Part shown: one piece after another, positions 48,663-58,081 of the stretch | Layout: each line of letters starts with the position of its first letter | Position numbering within the stretch: position 1 is the stretch's first letter | From: Escherichia coli O127:H6 str. E2348/69 | GTDB taxonomy: Bacteria; Pseudomonadota; Gammaproteobacteria; Enterobacterales; Enterobacteriaceae | Length of the DNA: 64,000 nt | Direction: 5' to 3' (one strand) | Assembly (NCBI RefSeq): GCF_000026545.1 | Contig: NC_011601.1 | Program-made: the position numbers and the translations under genes | The notes under the pieces: model-generated | Seen by the model: only the letters and a program-made list of their open reading frames with translations | What the model was told of the DNA's origin: nothing | Database searches by the model: none

Positions 48663-48839
48663 ATGGATATGACCATGCAGGAATTACGGGCTACTCTAAA
48701 CCTATCCCCCAACTATCCTGAAGAAAACCACTTTCTAGATGATAATCTAACGGAAGAACTCGATAATGAGGAAATTCGACAACATCTGGGAATAGATTCG
48801 GATTGGATGGATGCAGTGGACACTAGCCAGATAATTTGA
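48663..48839 (+). CDS. Small highly acidic ORF (58 aa), not in ORF track
   Basis: Manual translation MDMTMQELRATLNLSPNYPEENHFLDDNLTEELDNEEIRQHLGIDSDWMDAVDTSQII; GGAG upstream. Confidence 0.25.
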   Translation: MDMTMQELRATLNLSPNYPEENHFLDDNLTEELDNEEIRQHLGIDSDWMDAVDTSQII

Positions 48840-49020
48840 ATCCTAACTAACAAAAACGCTGTCTGCCCTCTGTAGATTGGCGCTCTGTAGTGTTTGTCTT
48901 GCTTGCTTTTGACACCAAGTCGCCTGTAACTATGATCACGGGCAGGCATGAGCAAACAGATAACATAAAAGTCTATTATGGGAAGTGATTCAAGAAATCA
49001 TGGTAATTCATAGATAACTA

Positions 49021-49059
49021 AAATAGAATAATAGCCCAAATCAAACTTGATGAGGGCTA
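49021..49059 (-). terminator. Possible terminator downstream of the two-gene cassette
   Basis: TAGCCC/GGGCTA stem (16-nt loop) with T-rich minus-strand tail. Confidence 0.3.
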
Positions 49060-49064
49060 TATTT

Positions 49065-49724
49065 TTAGTAATTGAATGATGTGCCATTCCCGTTAGTTAG
49101 ACTTTTTATGCTTTTTCTGAGGAATGGGTGTGTCATAAAACCGTTGACTCTCACACCGTAGACTGATAGAAAATTTTGGCATATAGGTATCAATTTTTTG
49201 CTATCATCCTTTGATGATTTTAAATCAATAAGTGTTGATATGTCTTGGTGTGTTATTAATTCTGTTGAAAACTTAAGCGCCAAGCTTTCTTTTGCGAAAA
49301 TTGGCGCTCGCATTTCTGCACTGAGTGATATAAGAATTGTCCTTACGCACCATGATATCCTTTTATTCATTAAGAATTTGTTTTGAATGTTATTGTTTTC
49401 AGCACATATAAAATGCAATAATTTTGTTGCAGTATCAATATCATCTGAATAATTTTCTTTGTATTTAAATGATGATGATATGCTTTCAAATAGCTCCTCG
49501 TTAAATATTGGCAAGCCCTCTTCCTTCAAGTGCAAGGCAAATAAACTCCCACCTTCCATTATTTTCTTCGCCAATGCAACAGGATACATTGCTATATTTA
49601 ACTTTCCTTTCACAATCATTTTGTAATGTAGGCCATCGTATATAGCAAACATATCCACATCAGATGCCTCAGTTTGATCTCCACGAGCAGTGCTTCCATA
49701 AATAACCAAAGATTTAATATCCAT
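49065..49724 (-). CDS. Minimal nucleotidyltransferase (pol-beta superfamily) with C-terminal helical domain (219 aa)
   Basis: GS-x10-DVD motif (LVIYGSTARGDQTEASDVDMFAIY); start 1 nt after upstream stop; ~30% GC. Confidence 0.6.
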   Translation of the reverse strand: MDIKSLVIYGSTARGDQTEASDVDMFAIYDGLHYKMIVKGKLNIAMYPVALAKKIMEGGSLFALHLKEEGLPIFNEELFESISSSFKYKENYSDDIDTATKLLHFICAENNNIQNKFLMNKRISWCVRTILISLSAEMRAPIFAKESLALKFSTELITHQDISTLIDLKSSKDDSKKLIPICQNFLSVYGVRVNGFMTHPFLRKSIKSLTNGNGTSFNY

Positions 49725-49725
49725 G

Positions 49726-50847
49726 CTAAGACCTTGATGTACATATTTTATTTATTAAAGTTGGTATTAATATACCATACCACCATACACCAATCATCAT
49801 GTTAATCAGGTGTATTGTTTCATCTAGCTGCCCAATACCACTGGTCGTGCGCTCTGTTGAATACTTCGTGTAACCTGTAAGAAGAGTTATATCAACTGCC
49901 TTCATGAATGCCCCAATAACATCACCGGATGATGTTATTGCATAGATAATCGTAAATACAATCATGATAAATAAACCAACAAATATACATCTGAATAAAC
50001 TCCCTCCCCAACCATTAATGAGACCTGATGTATTTATTATAAAATTCTCAATCACTGATTTTAACAGCAGTATGCTGTACCATAGCTTTTTTGTTACTTT
50101 TGAATTACTACGCTCGAAGAGTAGAGATTTCTGCTTAGATTTTTGTTTGCATTTGAAGTGAACCTCTACCGCCTGATAATACACTTCATCATCCGGAATT
50201 GTAGATAATGAATTAAGCAATATCTTAGAGCACTTTGTTTTAGTTCCATAGGACCTGTATTTTTGGTACTCAGGTGTTGTACCTTCTTTCTCACAAATAT
50301 CTTTATCTTGATTTACAAATAGCGCACCAATAAATTTACTTGGCTCGATATATGTATTATTTAACTTTGTTTCATTACCGGAATAAGATATATCCTTATA
50401 TGTACAATTATTAAACTGACAGTTTTCAAATGATGCCATTGAAAAACTGCATTCGATAAAGGTACAATCTACAAATTTAATATTTTTGAAATTTGCATAA
50501 CCAAAGCAAACCTTCCTGAACTCACAACTCTTAAATGTTATTCTTATTCCTTTGTTGTCACCATATATATCACACTCTGTAAATACATATCCTGAAAAGA
50601 ATTTATTTTTAAAATTTTCAGGTTTATGTTTCTTTGATAAAATCAATTTTCCTTCATAGTCTTTAGGAGTAGCTATATGCTCAGGAATAGTTAAGTCTAT
50701 CGCTACCTTTCGAGGTCCAGAGTTGTTTTTCCCGTTAATATTTAGGTCGTCAAGTCCCCATTTGATGAACTCTTCCAGATTAATGTTAGGATCATATGTC
50801 GCATCCCAATAATTTTTTATCCGATGCTGCCTGATGCTGTTGGCCAT
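49726..50847 (-). CDS. Pentapeptide-repeat protein with C-terminal two-TM, ion-channel-like domain (373 aa)
   Basis: Central tandem pentapeptide repeats; C-terminal hydrophobic helices FRCIFVGLFIMIVFTIIYAI and MMIGVWWYGILIPTLI flanking LLTGYTKY; AT-rich. Confidence 0.6.
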   Translation of the reverse strand: MANSIRQHRIKNYWDATYDPNINLEEFIKWGLDDLNINGKNNSGPRKVAIDLTIPEHIATPKDYEGKLILSKKHKPENFKNKFFSGYVFTECDIYGDNKGIRITFKSCEFRKVCFGYANFKNIKFVDCTFIECSFSMASFENCQFNNCTYKDISYSGNETKLNNTYIEPSKFIGALFVNQDKDICEKEGTTPEYQKYRSYGTKTKCSKILLNSLSTIPDDEVYYQAVEVHFKCKQKSKQKSLLFERSNSKVTKKLWYSILLLKSVIENFIINTSGLINGWGGSLFRCIFVGLFIMIVFTIIYAITSSGDVIGAFMKAVDITLLTGYTKYSTERTTSGIGQLDETIHLINMMIGVWWYGILIPTLINKICTSRS

Positions 50848-51659
50848 TTTTTAACCCACACAATTCTTTTGTTATGTATTTCAGGCTTTGTTAACGTTTC
50901 AGCCAGAATGCTGCACTGTCTGTATATACAAAAAACTGAGTATTGGTGCTATCGTCACCGGTAACTGGAACTTTTACACGGGAGCATCAACCAAATTCGT
51001 TCTTTCATTGTATCCGCGTTATACGTGCATTCAAGCTACAAGATGATGAAAAACGCCTGTGTCTATTCTAGCAAGTGAACCGTCGTGAGTTCAACAGACA
51101 CAAGGGGCTACCCTTCAACAGATCCTGCTCTATGGTTGGGGGCCCCCCTTCGCGTTATGCGTTCTACGTTCATAAATGTTCGCTATTGGCACATGTCGGG
51201 TGAAATACTTGACCAAAAACTAAAGTACACGTGCCTAAGCAAAATCTGAAACTGAGAGACTGGCTAGTCAGAGTCGAATTTTACGCAAGGACTCGGTTCA
51301 ACTCTTTGTTTGGCAGTCTCTGCTCCCAAAAATGGTTTCATGCATATGATAAACCTTTTAGATTAGATTGAGCTCAGGTCAACAATAGTGTCAGATCGAG
51401 CACAAATCAGCACTAATGATGCTACACATCGTTTAGCACATCCAATTTTAGCCACCTAAAATGCGTTCTAATGCGGATATATGTCTACCTGCAATTCTTT
51501 CACCACTTCACACCGAAAACCTCAAATATCGGCTCCTATTACGTTTTTTCTCTGGCTGGGATTTTTACACGTCGAGAATAGGGAAAACATCCCAAAAAAC
51601 GCTTACAGTATTGACGTTACGTTGCAGGTATTCTGGCTTTCAGCATTACAACGCCAATA

Positions 51660-51910
51660 TATATTATTGTTTTTAATATTGTTTTTATTTATCGTTATAA
51701 GATTGATTGTTTTTTATACATCAATTTTTCTATAAGAGTGAATCCTAAATATTGATATTTCTATGGGGTTGCCCTTCATCAAAATTGCGTTTTTTTCTAA
51801 GACTTTTGCTTTTTCATTGAGCTACGCGGATACGCCGCCTCTGGCGGCTTTCTCCCGCGACAGGTCACAATCGTCGAATGCGAGTCGCCGCCTTTGGCGG
51901 CTTTCTCGCT
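51660..51910. repeat. Origin-like region: AT-rich iterons plus duplicated hairpin next to rep
   Basis: TTGTTTTTA three times (51668-51713); CGCCGCCTCTGGCGGCTTTCTC (51832-51853) and CGCCGCCTTTGGCGGCTTTCTC (51884-51905), each a GCCGCC/GGCGGC hairpin. Confidence 0.4.
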
Positions 51911-51991
51911 ACTGACGTTTGAGGAGATTATGTTGTGGTTTAATGACTATTTTTGATTAAAAAAACCACAAATGGTCGCAAAACTCTACTA

Positions 51992-52990
51992 CTAATAGTA
52001 ACTGCGCATCCTTCTTTCTCTGGATATGTTCAAGCGCGCTTTTCTCAGCACCAGCAACAGCGGCTTACTTCTTAACAATTCACAAAGCGTTATCGCCTTC
52101 GGTGAGTACTGTCTGGCTTGCAGCGCCTCTCTACGCTCTACCTCTGCGGCTTTTCTGAGGGCTAGCGTTTGTAAGTTGTAGTATGTTTTATCGCTACATG
52201 TAACGATGATTGGTTTCACATGTGATCGTTCGGGTGAGTCAGCCAGTGTTCGCTGTATCCTGCGGCGCTGCGCTGGTCTTTTTGCTTTTGACGCTTCAAG
52301 TTTCAACTGCGTACGCCGTACTTCAAAGTATCCCGCTGCTTCTGGGGTTATGATCTGCGATGCGTGCGTTGCCCAATTACTGGATGACGCCCATACGGAC
52401 ACTGATAACCAGTCGTACGGGCTTTTTTCTGCTCTGGCATTAAACTCCTTAAGTTTAGTTTTACCTTTTGTAAGGTACGATAGGACTTCAAAACTGTAAA
52501 CGAATCTAACATCTTGATTTTTAATTAAATTATTGCGACCCTCATATGGCTGGCGCTTTACCCACGCAACCAGCAGGTCTCTCGCTATGCTCTCATCTGG
52601 AACTTTCACAATCATGTGTAAATGTAGGGTATCCTGAAACGCCGCCCACTCAACACAATATATCCACGGAATACTGCGTCTCGTAAGCGAGCGTGTGAAT
52701 GTGGTTATCGCCGTTTTCAAAGTCTCCGGCGTGATGCACTGTGCTGGGCGTAAGGTCAGCAAATATACGTTTCCACCTTGTGTAGCATCCAGATCGATAG
52801 AGAGTAGACGTCTTTTGAAGGCTCTAAGCCTGTCAATCGAAAAAGCCACTTTGCGCTTTCTGATGTGGCTGTTTGGGCTTGTTTTCTTTCTTTGCTTGTT
52901 TTGGTTGCGTGGTTTCATGTAAGCGTCAACAAATGCACCACGCTTGCGCACGATGTATTGTTCAGCGCGATCCCCGTGATATAATTTCAT
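51992..52990 (-). CDS. Rolling-circle-type (HUH) replication initiator (332 aa)
   Basis: HUH-like motif TLHLHMIVKV and downstream Tyr motif VLSYLTKGKTK; basic C-terminus. Confidence 0.5.
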   Translation of the reverse strand: MKLYHGDRAEQYIVRKRGAFVDAYMKPRNQNKQRKKTSPNSHIRKRKVAFSIDRLRAFKRRLLSIDLDATQGGNVYLLTLRPAQCITPETLKTAITTFTRSLTRRSIPWIYCVEWAAFQDTLHLHMIVKVPDESIARDLLVAWVKRQPYEGRNNLIKNQDVRFVYSFEVLSYLTKGKTKLKEFNARAEKSPYDWLSVSVWASSSNWATHASQIITPEAAGYFEVRRTQLKLEASKAKRPAQRRRIQRTLADSPERSHVKPIIVTCSDKTYYNLQTLALRKAAEVERREALQARQYSPKAITLCELLRSKPLLLVLRKARLNISRERRMRSYY

Positions 52991-53042
52991 TGCGAATATG
53001 TTCCTAAAATTACCCGCCTGGCAGGGCGGGTTTTTTTATGTC

Positions 53043-53432
53043 TTACAGGTACTTTTCCCCAATTGCTTGCGTTATCTCTGAGAACGACGATTCAGACACG
53101 TCCCCTCTGATCCCCCTAAGTATTCGTAACGCAGACTCAACCTTGCGTAATATCTTCGTGTATCTTGCATTGGTGCGCCATATACAAAGCATTCCCGCTT
53201 TGTCGAGTCGGTATTTTACCAAATCCCTTTCAGGAATGTGATATGCACCATCCATGCGCTGTTCGACGGGGATACCCCAGTCATTACGTAACAGAGTTAA
53301 AACACGGCTGCGCTCATGTCCACCAGCAGAAGATAAGTACCTGTCAAATTGGGTTGGGGTGAGGCTATGACCATCTAACAGAATATCGCGGATCTGTGCG
53401 GTAGCTTGGTTTCGTGTCAATGCTTTCATCAT
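53043..53432 (-). CDS. Hypothetical protein (130 aa from ATG at 53432)
   Basis: Track ORF (231 aa) trimmed because its N-terminal third overlaps the AlpA-like gene in another frame. Confidence 0.4.
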   Translation of the reverse strand: MMKALTRNQATAQIRDILLDGHSLTPTQFDRYLSSAGGHERSRVLTLLRNDWGIPVEQRMDGAYHIPERDLVKYRLDKAGMLCIWRTNARYTKILRKVESALRILRGIRGDVSESSFSEITQAIGEKYL

Positions 53433-53439
53433 TTGCCCC

Positions 53440-53622
53440 TTACAGAAACCGGGCTGCGAATTGGTCGAGATCTGCAACCAACCATACTCTGCGCTTTCTG
53501 CCGTTGATAGACTGGACGGTGCAAGTCGGAAAAGCTGGAATGTAACGCTTATATTGGTAAAAGCGTGATAGACAAACGCCAAGATATTGCGCGGATTCTC
53601 GCGCGGTAAGGTAATTTTCCAT
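53440..53622 (-). CDS. Small AlpA/Xis-like HTH protein (60 aa)
   Basis: LTARESAQYLGVCLSRFYQYKR HTH-like segment; sits between int and rep. Confidence 0.45.
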   Translation of the reverse strand: MENYLTARESAQYLGVCLSRFYQYKRYIPAFPTCTVQSINGRKRRVWLVADLDQFAARFL

Positions 53623-53824
53623 AATAACGATCCATGTTTATGTTTTGTCCACATTATGGGGCATCCTGCCCCATAAATACTGTACATAATTTTTTCAATT
53701 ATCCCAAGTCTACAACCAAAAAATCTCCCGCGTAGCAATCCCTATAGTTCGCCCTTGTTCTGTTTCAATTTCATATACGCTAGCTCCACACAAGCTGTAT
53801 CGCCACCATAATTTCGATCTCCGG

Positions 53825-55087
53825 CTAATTACAGTTACTATATTTTTTCATGGGGACGACGTTGTAATCTTCACCACTTTCCAGCGTAACCAGCAGTTCA
53901 GCCCACTGCTCCAATGCAGCTTTTCTCTCTTCAAAATAGTGGTGGCGATTATAAATACCTTCAACACCGGGTATTTTATGATTAAGACATCTTTCAGCTA
54001 TTACAGGATCAATCCCCAATGCTGCCATCTGGGTACGCATCGTACGTCGTAAGTCATGAATGCTAAATGGCTCAACATCAGGCATCTCTTTTAATACTGA
54101 AGGCAAAACCATATTCAGCGTACTGCGACTAACGTGCGATGTAGTCCTCCCCCTCCTTGCCGGAATTAACCAGCGGCTATTACCAGCAAACAGACGGATT
54201 TCCTTGATCCATTCGATAACAGGATCAGCTAGCGGGATGTCTATCTCCTCACCATTTTTTGCTCGATCAGCAGGAAAATGCCAAACTTTTTCATCAAGAT
54301 TAAACTCCGACCACTCGGCAGCGCATAATTCCATCTTGCGAACCCCTAGCGCGAGAATGATTTTAAACGTTAACTCATTCTCTCTGCTAATACCCCGCCC
54401 CTTACGCAGAGCTTTAAAAAACATTACTAGCTCCTCACGCGTGAGTGCTCGCTTACGCCCTTGCTCTTTCCCGCCTGCATCTTTTGAACTAAATGAAATC
54501 GCGGGGTTTACTTCAATCATCCCGCGTACAACAGCATAATCAAAAAGGCGCTTAAGCATTCTTAGCACGTCATTCGCAACGGTAGGAGAACCGCGCTCTA
54601 ATACATTCTGCAAAACATAGTCGATATGTTTCGGGCGTACATCCTCAATTTTCATTTTGCCGATAGATGCGACAATGTTTTTTTGTAAGCTACTGCGAAA
54701 TAACTCCGGATGCTTGTAAGTGGGTTCTATCTGCCGCGAGTAATACTCAGCGGCTAAATCTGATACTCGTTTTGCGTTCTTTTGCGCTTCAATCTTTTCC
54801 AATGCTTCAGCTTTTCGCTTCTGTTTCTCTCCTGCTACGTCATAACCAAGAGAAACACGGGCTGCCAGTTCTCTGGCGACCTCTCTTGCTTTTGCAAGAG
54901 AGAAATCAGTATACGAACCAATCAGCACAACTCGCGATTTTCCGCCTAACTTGTAACGAAAGCGCCAGTTAGGGAGTTTGTCACTTTTCCTAAATCGAAG
55001 ATAAAGCCCGTTTCCGTCTGCCTTACCTTCGAATCTCTCATCGGATTTAATCCAAGCTTTGATTTGTAGGTCAGTTAATTTTGCCAT
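53825..55087 (-). CDS. int: Tyrosine integrase (P4-type)
   Basis: MAKLTDLQIKAWIKSDERFEGKADGNGLYLRFRKSDKLPNWRFRYK arm-binding N-terminus; HDLRRT...Y catalytic region; ATG at 55087 with GGTG RBS. Confidence 0.8.
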   Translation of the reverse strand: MAKLTDLQIKAWIKSDERFEGKADGNGLYLRFRKSDKLPNWRFRYKLGGKSRVVLIGSYTDFSLAKAREVARELAARVSLGYDVAGEKQKRKAEALEKIEAQKNAKRVSDLAAEYYSRQIEPTYKHPELFRSSLQKNIVASIGKMKIEDVRPKHIDYVLQNVLERGSPTVANDVLRMLKRLFDYAVVRGMIEVNPAISFSSKDAGGKEQGRKRALTREELVMFFKALRKGRGISRENELTFKIILALGVRKMELCAAEWSEFNLDEKVWHFPADRAKNGEEIDIPLADPVIEWIKEIRLFAGNSRWLIPARRGRTTSHVSRSTLNMVLPSVLKEMPDVEPFSIHDLRRTMRTQMAALGIDPVIAERCLNHKIPGVEGIYNRHHYFEERKAALEQWAELLVTLESGEDYNVVPMKKYSNCN

Positions 55088-55111
55088 TACGAACACCTGA
55101 ATACGTTACAT

Positions 55112-55206
55112 CGGGTACGCAAAGCCATCGTCACCGTGTACCCAATTTCTAACACCGTGTACCCAAACCGCAAGAACCTCTCTTTGGGTACACTTTTGTG
55201 TACACA
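55112..55206. promoter_or_regulatory. Cluster of GTAC-core direct and inverted repeats upstream of int
   Basis: CACCGTGTACCCAA twice (55132-55145, 55153-55166, 21-bp period); TGGGTACACttTTGTGTACACA (55185-55206), also found at 47924-47945. Confidence 0.4.
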
Positions 55207-55245
55207 ATATCTTGCATCTTTATGAACTGTTATGACAACTAGTGA

Positions 55246-55272
55246 TAATAAAAAAGCCCGCAATATGCGGGC
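55246..55272 (-). terminator. Rho-independent terminator of der
   Basis: GCCCGC-aatat-GCGGGC hairpin with minus-strand T-run. Confidence 0.5.
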
Positions 55273-55312
55273 TTATAAGGTTTTGTAGTGTTTAGTGAAT
55301 CGTGATGATTCG

Positions 55313-56785
55313 TTATTTGCTTTTCTTGATATGCTTCATCAAACGCTTACGCTTGCGCATCTGGGTTGGCGTCAGGGTATTACGCTTGTTCGCATACGGG
55401 TTTTCCCCTTCTTTGAACTGAATACGAATCGGCGATCCCATTACGTCCAGCGATTTGCGGAAGTAGTTCATCAGGTAACGCTTGTAGGAATCCGACAGGT
55501 CTTTCACCTGATTACCGTGAATCACCACAATCGGCGGGTTATAACCACCGGCGTGGGCATATTTCAGCTTCACACGACGACCGCGTACCAGCGGCGGTTG
55601 GTGATCTTCAACAGCCATCGTCATGATGCGCGTCAGCATAGAGGTCCCCACACGACGGGTGGAGCTGTCATACGCTTCACGTACTGATTCAAACAGGTTA
55701 CCAACACCACTGCCGTGCAAGGCAGAGATAAAGTGCACACGAGCAAAATCGATAAAACCCAGACGGAAGTCCAGCGTTTCTTTCACCTGCTCTTTCACTT
55801 CCTGGCTCAGGCCATCCCACTTATTCACCACAATGACAAGTGAGCGCCCACTATTGAGAATAAAGCCCAGCAGCGAGAGATCCTGATCGGAAATACCTTC
55901 GCGGGCGTCAATCACCAACATCACCACGTTGGCATCTTCAATGGCCTGCAACGTTTTGATTACCGAGAACTTCTCTACCGCATCGGTGATTTTGCCGCGT
56001 TTACGTACGCCAGCGGTGTCAATGAGCACATACTCACGTCCGTCGCGTTCCATTGGAATGTAGATACTGTCACGCGTCGTGCCAGGCATGTCGTAAACAA
56101 CAACGCGCTCTTCACCAAGAATACGGTTAGTGAGTGTAGACTTACCTACGTTCGGGCGACCCACAATCGCCAGTTTGATCGGCAGACTTTGCGGGTCGAA
56201 GTCGTCTTCCTCTTCTTCTTCGCCGTTCTCTTCCGCTTCAAATTGCGCCCAGTATTCGGCGTCTTCGTCGACTTCTTCTTGCGGTGCGAGATCTTCCATC
56301 CACGGCAGCAGCACGTGCTCCAGCAGACTTAATACGCCACGACCGTGAGACGCGGCGATCGGGTAGATTTCACCTAAACCAAGCGCGTAGAAATCAACCA
56401 CTGCCTGATCGGGATCCAGACCGTCAGTTTTGTTTGCCACCAGGAAGGTCGGTTTTTCACGGGAGCGCAGATGTTTGGCAATCGCTTCATCTGCCGGCAT
56501 AAGGCCCGCGCGCGCATCCACCATAAACAGTACGACGTCCGCTTCTTCAATCGCCAGCAGCGACTGTTCCGCCATGCGGGTTTCTACACCGTCTTCTGTG
56601 CCATCAATCCCGCCGGTATCAATGCAGATAAACTCACGGCCTTCAATTTCCGCACGACCGTACTTACGGTCACGAGTCAGACCCGGGAAATCCGCAACCA
56701 GCGCATCTCGGGTGCGAGTTAGACGGTTAAATAACGTGGATTTTCCTACGTTAGGGCGCCCGACAAGCGCGACCACAGGTACCAT
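55313..56785 (-). CDS. der: Ribosome-associated GTPase Der (EngA)
   Basis: Two GTPase domains (GRPNVGKST twice); 490 aa from [17 protein letters not shown]. Confidence 0.95.
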
Positions 56786-56902
56786 GTTTAAAGCCTCATT
56801 TTTATAAATCATCAGACAACGCACGCTATATTCGTGTCGTTGTTAAAAACAGGAAAACGGCCCCTGTCCAGGAGCCGTTTTCAAAGTGAACGACAGAGAC
56901 GA

Positions 56903-58081
56903 TTAACGTGTAATAGAGTACACGGTTCCGTCTTTTGCCTGGATCAGCAGTTTGCCGTCAGCAGCAACCGGTTCAGTCTGGAAACCGGAACTATCAACTT
57001 TTTGCTGGGCAACGAAACGACCATCTTCGACGTTAATCCAGTGCAGATAACCTTCACTGTCACCTACCACCAGGTTGCCATTATACAGCACCGGAGAAGT
57101 CAGCAGGCGATGCAGCAGATCGCTTTGTGTCCACAGCGTAACGCCGCCATCAATGGTCAACGCCATCACCCGGTCATTTTGATCGACCAGATAGATGCGA
57201 TTGCCGTCGACGATGAAATCATTCACCGAACCCAGTTCGCGTTTCCACATAATCTGACCGCTGCGCAGATCAAGCGCCGTCAGGTTACCATTATAGGCCA
57301 GCGCGAAAACAACGCCGTTAACAACGACGGGAGTCGTGTCAACATCGCTCAGACGGTCAATTTCGGTAGAACCGGTCGCCTGGGAAATACGCTGCTGCCA
57401 AATCATCTGGCCCTGTTCCATCAGCACTGCGCTGACGCGACCATTATCGCCACCCACGACGGCCGCACCAAAAGCCGTTGCCGGCGCAGACTCGCCACGC
57501 AAAGAGAGCGAAGGCATATCGAGGTTAACTGTCCATTTGACAGCGCCGTCAGCTTCGTTCAGCGCTTGTAACTGACCGTTACTGGTGTGGATTAACACCA
57601 GACCGTCGCTGACCACCGGGCGCGAAAGTGCTTCACCCGCGACTTTAGTTTGCCATGCCACAGTACCATCGCTGGTATTCAGCGCGTAAACCTGCGCCTT
57701 TTCGGTGCCAATGTAGACATGCCCACCAGACACGGTCACGCCGCCAGAAAGTAATGCAGGATCTTTAGAGAACCAGCCATCTTTCTCGGCCAGGTTGACA
57801 GACCAGATTTCTTTGCCGTCATCCGCATTCAGCGCTTTTACTAAACCAGCGCGGTCCGCTGCATAGACAACGTTGTCCGCCAGTGCCGGATGAAGATTGG
57901 AATAGAAGTTGCCAATGCCGCTACCAACGGAAGTGCTCCACACAGTAGTCGGCGTAAACTGGTTTTCAACGGTTGGCAATGGGGACATCTTTACCACATC
58001 TTCTTCGCTGTTAAACAGCGAACAGCCGCTTAAAAGGGTAACGGAAAGCAGTCCTGGCAGCAGTAATTTACGCAATTGCAT
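56903..58081 (-). CDS. bamB: Outer-membrane protein assembly factor BamB
   Basis: Lipoprotein signal (LLSGCSL), 392 aa matching E. coli BamB. Confidence 0.95.
   Translation of the reverse strand: MQLRKLLLPGLLSVTLLSGCSLFNSEEDVVKMSPLPTVENQFTPTTVWSTSVGSGIGNFYSNLHPALADNVVYAADRAGLVKALNADDGKEIWSVNLAEKDGWFSKDPALLSGGVTVSGGHVYIGTEKAQVYALNTSDGTVAWQTKVAGEALSRPVVSDGLVLIHTSNGQLQALNEADGAVKWTVNLDMPSLSLRGESAPATAFGAAVVGGDNGRVSAVLMEQGQMIWQQRISQATGSTEIDRLSDVDTTPVVVNGVVFALAYNGNLTALDLRSGQIMWKRELGSVNDFIVDGNRIYLVDQNDRVMALTIDGGVTLWTQSDLLHRLLTSPVLYNGNLVVGDSEGYLHWINVEDGRFVAQQKVDSSGFQTEPVAADGKLLIQAKDGTVYSITR

Follow-up and report, generated by a model that had tools for sequence, protein, structure and literature searches.

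A gene-free stretch upstream of a Hailong operon is probably patchwork junction DNA of a small mobile Escherichia coli island

Hailong is an anti-phage system that consists of an ion-channel effector, HalA, and a nucleotidyltransferase, HalB (Tan et al., Nature 2025). According to the summaries in PMC13276650 and PMC13275509, HalB makes short poly-dA DNA, which holds the HalA channel shut until the DNA is removed by phage infection. Both summaries describe two protein components, and an RNA component is not mentioned in either of them. Defence genes have also been surveyed in the hotspots of P4 and P2, where many small intergenic pieces that cannot be assigned are found in defence loci and are regarded as remnants of intense recombination (bioRxiv 10.64898/2026.02.27.708500).

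Here, we analyse the DNA that precedes a halA gene on the chromosome of enteropathogenic E. coli E2348/69. The window, that is the whole stretch of 64,000 nucleotides that was analysed, derives from this chromosome (100% identity over the region of interest and 8.4 kb around it). The region of interest is an 812-bp stretch at positions 50848-51659. A first-pass annotation had described it as a long stretch without a credible gene between cargo and origin, and this is borne out, as no conserved ORF is found in 50848-51659. The DNA that is devoid of RefSeq annotation extends further, over 1144 bp (50848-51991). We think it likely that the gene-free 0.8 kb is ordinary patchwork junction DNA in a small mobile island, and that it is neither a hidden RNA nor a dead gene.

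The island and its cargo slot

The stretch is part of a 7.3-kb integrative island (47924-55206) that carries Hailong. The island is recognised by the direct repeats at both of its ends and by its position next to der. The repeats, TGGGTACAC..TTGTGTACACA, bound the island at 47924-47945 and 55185-55206 and are probable attachment sites. The chromosomal gene der adjoins the island, which lies in the der-to-yfgJ interval, and sister islands use the same interval in other strains. Its features are as follows.

47959-48558, minus strand: AlpA-like regulator (RefSeq annotation and family scans)
48663-48839, plus strand: 58-aa ORF between halB and the AlpA-like gene, conserved in sister islands
49065-50847, minus strand: Hailong operon (context), with halA at 49726-50847 and halB at 49065-49724
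50848-50908, minus strand: Hailong-linked leader, the 61 bp immediately 5' of the halA start codon
50909-51176, no strand: unique 'orphan' DNA, present only in four E. coli genomes with this island-cargo pair
51177-51341, plus strand: decayed, right-end-truncated copy of a palindromic repeat (profile and BLAST matches)
51342-51373, no strand: short unique stretch from the repeat remnant to the backbone, outside the profile and absent from sister islands
51374-51659, no strand: island backbone spacer, less conserved part, common to sister islands with other cargos
51660-51991, no strand: AT-rich tract and origin-like region (context; GC content, repeats and fold z-scores)
51992-52990, minus strand: Rep-like protein (context; HUH-type motifs HLHMIV and SYLTKG)
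53825-55096, minus strand: integrase, int (RefSeq annotation and family scans)

A gene for a hypothetical protein is located on the minus strand between the integrase and the Rep-like gene. Just outside the left end of the island, beside sinH, the RefSeq annotation lists a partial transposase fragment of the IS4 family with a frameshift (47568-47833). Between the right end and der there is a sub-threshold match to Trp_leader (55248-55347, minus strand; 28.6 bits versus 41, E = 0.02). The match results from the hairpin GCCCGCAUAUUGCGGGC and the U-run after it, and it most likely represents an intrinsic terminator of the ordinary kind.

The first-pass annotation had regarded the stretch as a single unit, but it is composed of four pieces with different histories, namely the Hailong-linked leader, the orphan DNA, the decayed repeat copy and the backbone spacer, and it carries no conserved coding or RNA-structure signal. 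Its left part is rare, since 50848-51400 is present in just 4 of the 5426 complete E. coli genomes.

The Rep-like protein is 332 amino acids long, and of the two motifs in its sequence HLHMIV is the HUH-type and SYLTKG the tyrosine motif. It reaches 27.1 bits with PF23343 (REP_ORF2-G2P), just below the cut-off of 27.8, and matches phrog_30534 with E = 1e-22. REP_ORF2-G2P is a replication-protein family of small ssDNA phages. Judged from these sequence features, an island that combines an integrase with a Rep of the rolling-circle type is conceivably either a satellite or a replicative island. A genome scan with the Rep protein recovered just three near-identical Escherichia islands, one of which stands in a record labelled as a Ligilactobacillus metagenome bin, and no distant islands. 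The 58-aa ORF (48663-48839) is matched along its entire length by phrog_35119 (E = 5e-14).

Backbone sequence is shared with the sister islands from 51374 (AH50), 51387 (ST70) or 51545 (E21845, E69) rightward. From these positions onward the identity to the sister islands is 88-93%. The spacer (51374-51659), at 81-92% and with one-base indels, is less conserved than the origin-like region that follows it. The spacer contains a conserved promoter-like site on the plus strand (TTAGCA-18-TAAAAT, 51433-51462) and, at about 51590-51645, an invariant block, which implies some backbone function. The first-pass annotation had seen no ORF of at least 60 amino acids with a credible start. This is not literally so, as two plus-strand ORFs overlap the right end of the stretch, 51461-51676 (71 aa) and 51481-51735 (84 aa). 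Neither of them has a visible Shine-Dalgarno sequence. They are not genes, since stops or frameshifts (one-base indels) interrupt them in the sister islands. In the comparison with related islands, which had been proposed as a check, the right part of the stretch, from 51374, 51387 or 51545, is common to these islands and its ORFs are broken; the left part is absent from them.

Beyond the spacer lies an AT-rich tract (51660-51760) with a GC content of 15.8%. It is followed by a region (51761-51991) that is located downstream of the Rep-like gene, is 96-98% identical across island types and is origin-like by its sequence features. It contains two 22-nt CGCCGCCTCTGGCGGCTTTCTC repeats (51833-51854 and 51886-51907), and each copy includes the palindrome CGCCGCC.CTGGCGGC. 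Windows covering 51808-51987 have fold z-scores of -3.7 to -5.5 on both strands; nowhere else in the gap is the DNA strongly structured.

The sister islands carry other cargos, which are a CBASS-like operon, two unknown genes, or an ATPase together with a DUF2357 protein. The breakpoints of the slot vary by cargo type and are found at 51374, 51387 and 51545 on the right and at 48856, 48860 and 48671 on the left. That the slot edges differ between cargo types points to recombination in homologous flanks and argues against a single, dedicated cassette site. Cargo would thus be swapped by recombination within conserved flanks, and each cargo would bring its own short upstream DNA into the slot between conserved island sequences. 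At the other edge of the slot there is a second 'orphan' piece downstream of halB (48860-49049, ~190 bp long), which belongs neither to the island backbone nor to the DNA in common with the Hailong locus of Serratia.

It is extremely unlikely that the island captures cargo by way of a site-specific recombination site of the integron attC type. Such a site would agree with the fixed position of the cargo slot in the island and with a 16-nt direct repeat, whose copies are found at 50965-50980 (CTGGAACTTTTACACG) and 51556-51571 (CTGGGATTTTTACACG). However, the slot boundaries vary by cargo type, as described above. Moreover, the sister islands have the backbone copy of the 16-mer only and none near their cargo, and a two-copy match of such quality is within chance. 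For the latter two reasons the direct repeat was rejected as a cassette site.

The Hailong leader and the orphan DNA upstream of it

HalA scores 295 bits on NF051894, which is above the NCBIfam equivalog cut-off of 250, and RefSeq names the gene halA. HalB scores 187.7 bits on NF051895 and thus falls just short of the cut-off of 190, which is why RefSeq labels it 'nucleotidyltransferase domain-containing protein'. We compared the operon to four other Hailong loci in total (HalA 80%, 65% and 61% identical). The nearest, that of Serratia marcescens, is 79% identical over both genes, and the alignment begins 61 bp before the ATG. These 61 bp (50848-50908) are the sole upstream DNA in common with the Serratia locus. 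Their GC content is 32.8%, that of halA and halB 33-34%, and it steps up to 46.4% exactly at 50908/50909, where the Serratia homology stops. The 61-65% identical loci share no upstream DNA with the stretch, and their gaps are just 62-235 bp. Judged from the sequence, the 61 bp are probably the 5' UTR and ribosome-binding region, and possibly part of the halA promoter as well.

Conserved linkage beyond the 61 bp is found neither with the 80% nor with the 61-65% identical loci. A profile search did not detect a copy of the repeat element in the other Hailong loci compared, and no conserved non-coding partner was found in the four of them. This, together with the fact that the summaries of Hailong mention no RNA component, indicates that the rest of the stretch is not part of Hailong.

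The orphan DNA (50909-51176, 46.4% GC) is confined to four of the 5426 E. coli genomes, each of which has the same island and Hailong. It has no match in the plasmids, phages, viral contigs or metagenomes searched, and no protein-level match in a six-frame query of 1.84 billion proteins. The 9-bp inverted repeat that had been reported here exists, but it is imperfect, with 8/9 pairs, and its arms (51056-51064 and 51096-51104) are shifted by one base. Hairpins of such quality are found in 10 registers in the region, compared to 3.8 ± 2.9 in shuffles. This is a mild enrichment, as 4.5% of the shuffles reach 10. Fold z-scores of the 120-nt windows covering the inverted repeat range from -0.4 to -1.8, which is no better than chance. 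The GGGGGCCCCCC string, noted by the first-pass annotation as well, is real and is located at 51138-51148. No other G5+C5+ string is present in the 64-kb window, and a string of this type arises in none of 2000 shuffles of the region, which makes it statistically unusual. Scans of viral and metagenome sequences with the G5C6 22-mer recovered one contig only, and its 26-base match is a poly-G artefact. A role of GGGGGCCCCCC as the start of a Tn3-type 38-bp terminal repeat was considered, but the likeness is limited to GGGG and an ACGTT that is offset by two bases, and no such relation is claimed.

In one strain, E. coli O6:H16 2011EL-1370-2, the orphan DNA is interrupted. IS1 (4645-5342 in the locus L010) has inserted at the equivalent of 50958-50968, 110-120 bp upstream of halA. 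Disruption of the stretch is thus tolerated, which we count in favour of a mosaic. The island integrase of the same strain is annotated as frameshifted.

halA must have a promoter within a few hundred bases. We infer that it is contained in the 60-250 bp that directly precede the gene, and its presence in the stretch is plausible but unproven. More specifically, 50909-51176 might carry the working halA-halB promoter and a long 5' UTR of 150-210 nt, which would make the stretch functional regulatory DNA of Hailong in this strain, a possibility that overlaps with the mosaic reading and that we regard as tentative and on balance rather unlikely. It is suggested by two sigma-70-like sites that face halA from the orphan DNA, TTGAAC-18-TAGAAT with an extended -10 TG (51094-51065) and TTGAAT-16-TACAAT (51034-51007), and by the conserved 61 bp, in which no good -35/-10 pair is seen by eye. 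However, the number of promoter-like sites in the region equals the expectation from shuffles (4 versus 3.5 ± 2.2), so there is no excess. Moreover, the Serratia relative has unrelated DNA at both sites, IS1 parts both sites from halA in strain 2011EL-1370-2, and windows of the putative UTR lack a fold signal. Of the three contents that had been proposed for the stretch, the cassette promoter alone survives, as a candidate with two sites that face halA but a site count that is matched by shuffles. For work on Hailong in E2348/69, halA-halB and roughly 60-250 bp of upstream DNA may be handled as the unit, and a non-coding partner need not be sought.

A palindromic repeat family and its remnant in the stretch

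The third piece of the stretch, 51177-51341, is a copy, now decayed, of a palindromic repeat of ~190 bp. It was detected with E = 2.5e-24 (83 bits) by a profile with a length of ~195 that had been built from six intact copies. The intact copies score 160-209 bits and are matched by the profile on both strands, whereas the window copy is matched on one strand only and spans positions 2-167 of the ~195. Its lower score, the single strand and the positions covered therefore identify it as a decayed remnant without the right end. The consensus ends of the repeat are GTCCGCT..GCnCAGGCTGTGTGAAAAC and GTTTTCACACAGCCTGnGC..AGCGGAC. Intact copies have terminal inverted repeats of ~35 bp and form an imperfect palindrome over almost their full length. 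In the window copy, the left end is mutated and the right end unrecognisable, so that it qualifies as a remnant only, and the adjoining 51342-51373 probably includes unrecognisable remains of the right end. Since the right end and most of the self-complementarity are lost, the window copy is probably inert.

The first-pass annotation had also pointed out several GTACAC motifs in the stretch and had linked them to the int promoter. The hexamer is present once in the region (51225-51230), and the window as a whole contains 21 copies, compared to 22 expected. At 51225-51230 the intact repeat copies read GTGCGC, and GTACAC is thus the product of a mutation. The cluster near int is accounted for by the terminal direct repeats of the island, and the link to the promoter falls away. 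Two further copies are found on the minus strand at 55136-55141 and 55157-55162.

BLAST with 51177-51341 finds unannotated sites on Rahnella and Erwinia plasmids with ~75% identity. In total, the family is found in 41 places in 36 plasmids of at least 10 genera, and the hosts include Klebsiella, Salmonella, Enterobacter, Rahnella, Erwinia, Pantoea, Kosakonia, Citrobacter and Pseudomonas. It is also present in 133 of 5426 E. coli genomes and in three viral contigs. The genes around the copies differ in every case, many copies reside in accessory or mobile DNA, and the copy number per replicon is low (1-5). Beside none of ten intact copies is there a direct repeat that could be a target-site duplication. 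The family is therefore not a textbook MITE and fits elements that are moved without duplication. An Rfam scan of four loci with intact copies assigned no family to the repeat, and its terminal sequence was not found in a literature search. On a Rahnella plasmid, a fluoride riboswitch that exceeds the Rfam threshold with 44 bits (locus L011, 2816-2890, minus strand) is located ~110 bp from a repeat copy and is unrelated to the finding.

One copy (locus L015, 3985-4392), whose outer right end is replaced, precedes the transposase gene of an IS110-family element (ISEsa2) by 230 bp. IS110 relatives target palindromic repeats. The arrangement suggests that ISEsa2 inserted into the end of the repeat copy, rather than being the parent element of the repeat. 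That the repeat is the bridge-RNA region of an IS110 element, at its non-coding end, was considered and rejected, as the repeat is palindromic, its ends are inverted and the majority of its copies are solo.

When intact, members of the repeat family form a long hairpin; the region, moreover, is free of ORFs over a long distance and mildly enriched in local hairpins. All this would be compatible with a structured regulatory RNA, as the first-pass annotation had considered. It might be a small RNA or a cis element and might belong to Hailong or to the island. We judge such an RNA to be very improbable. The covariance-model scan that had been suggested was carried out permissively with Rfam 15 over 46000-58000, and it yielded no match at E ≤ 1 within 50848-51991. 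The same is the case for the intact repeat copies. Sliding 120-nt fold windows over 50848-51659 have |z| < 2 throughout on both strands, and the stretch has no convincing terminator. Furthermore, the window repeat copy breaks most of the predicted pairs, the covariation term of the alignment is unfavourable (+1.15), and the other Hailong loci, in which conservation is limited to the 61 bp, lack such a region.

A decayed gene had been put forward as well. It is improbable that the stretch represents the remains of a protein-coding gene, such as an earlier cargo gene or a transposase. Gene fragments are frequent in defence hotspots (bioRxiv 10.64898/2026.02.27.708500), and several plus-strand stretches of 40-55 codons are open. 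However, a six-frame query with 50880-51400 of 1.84 billion representative proteins returned a single borderline match (E = 9.5e-4). This match is a spurious 54-aa mini-ORF inside another copy of the palindromic repeat, and the frame, which is the only ORF in the intact copies, is interrupted by a TAG stop in three of the seven copies that were aligned. In the DNA searches, moreover, there was no annotated gene beneath any match to the stretch.

Finally, the two middle pieces might both be functional, the palindromic element as a unit of mobile DNA and, separately, the orphan 270 bp with GGGGGCCCCCC as the seat of a strain-specific regulator of Hailong expression. This joint reading has little probability. 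Regarded by itself, the palindromic element could be functional, for example as a preferred landing site of IS110-family recombinases or as a signal for recombination or transcription. If true, this would explain why its interior is strongly conserved from Pseudomonas to Klebsiella, and its presence at the slot edge would mark how the Hailong cassette was acquired.

Make-up of the junction and comparison with known systems

We therefore return to the mosaic. The 812-bp stretch, at the right-hand edge of the island's cargo slot, is probably a mosaic created by recombination. From halA outward, its first ~61 bp travel with the Hailong operon and would supply the leader and ribosome-binding region. 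They are followed by ~270 bp of unique DNA of another base composition, which may have arrived with the cassette or may be left from an earlier cargo. The decayed repeat copy comes third, and fourth the spacer of the island itself, which runs into the putative replication origin. The unusual GGGGGCCCCCC string, the mild enrichment of local hairpins and the invariant block of the spacer weigh against this reading. The second and third parts (50909-51341) would be passengers or scars of cargo exchange. We infer that they lack a function of their own, and for the second part passenger status is the default reading.

The mosaic mostly clears the region of special content. What is new is modest and consists of the anatomy of a small defence-carrying island, which is tidy, and of a side product, a 190-bp palindromic repeat without annotation that is widespread in the plasmids and accessory regions of enterobacteria.

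How does the locus compare to described systems? The two adjoining genes are a Hailong operon, and the first 61 bp of the stretch travel with it. The repeat resembles MITEs and ERIC-type repeats in that it is small (~190 bp, below ~600), non-coding and, in its intact copies, bounded by inverted ends, and in that it is scattered over contexts and genera. It differs from MITEs in that there is no visible target-site duplication and in its low copy number per replicon; moreover, the copy in the window is degenerate and has lost the right end. Compared to the defence hotspots of P4 and P2, the island has an integrase, a Rep-like protein with HUH motif, an origin-like region and an AlpA-like regulator, whereas P4 core genes were not seen in family scans of the island, which is neither P4 nor P2. 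Like these hotspots, however, it has a fixed slot between conserved backbone genes that holds interchangeable defence operons, and short non-coding pieces that cannot be assigned lie at the edges of the slot. Thus, the locus is a clean worked example of a defence operon in the swap-slot of a small Rep-and-integrase island, with junk DNA at the edges.
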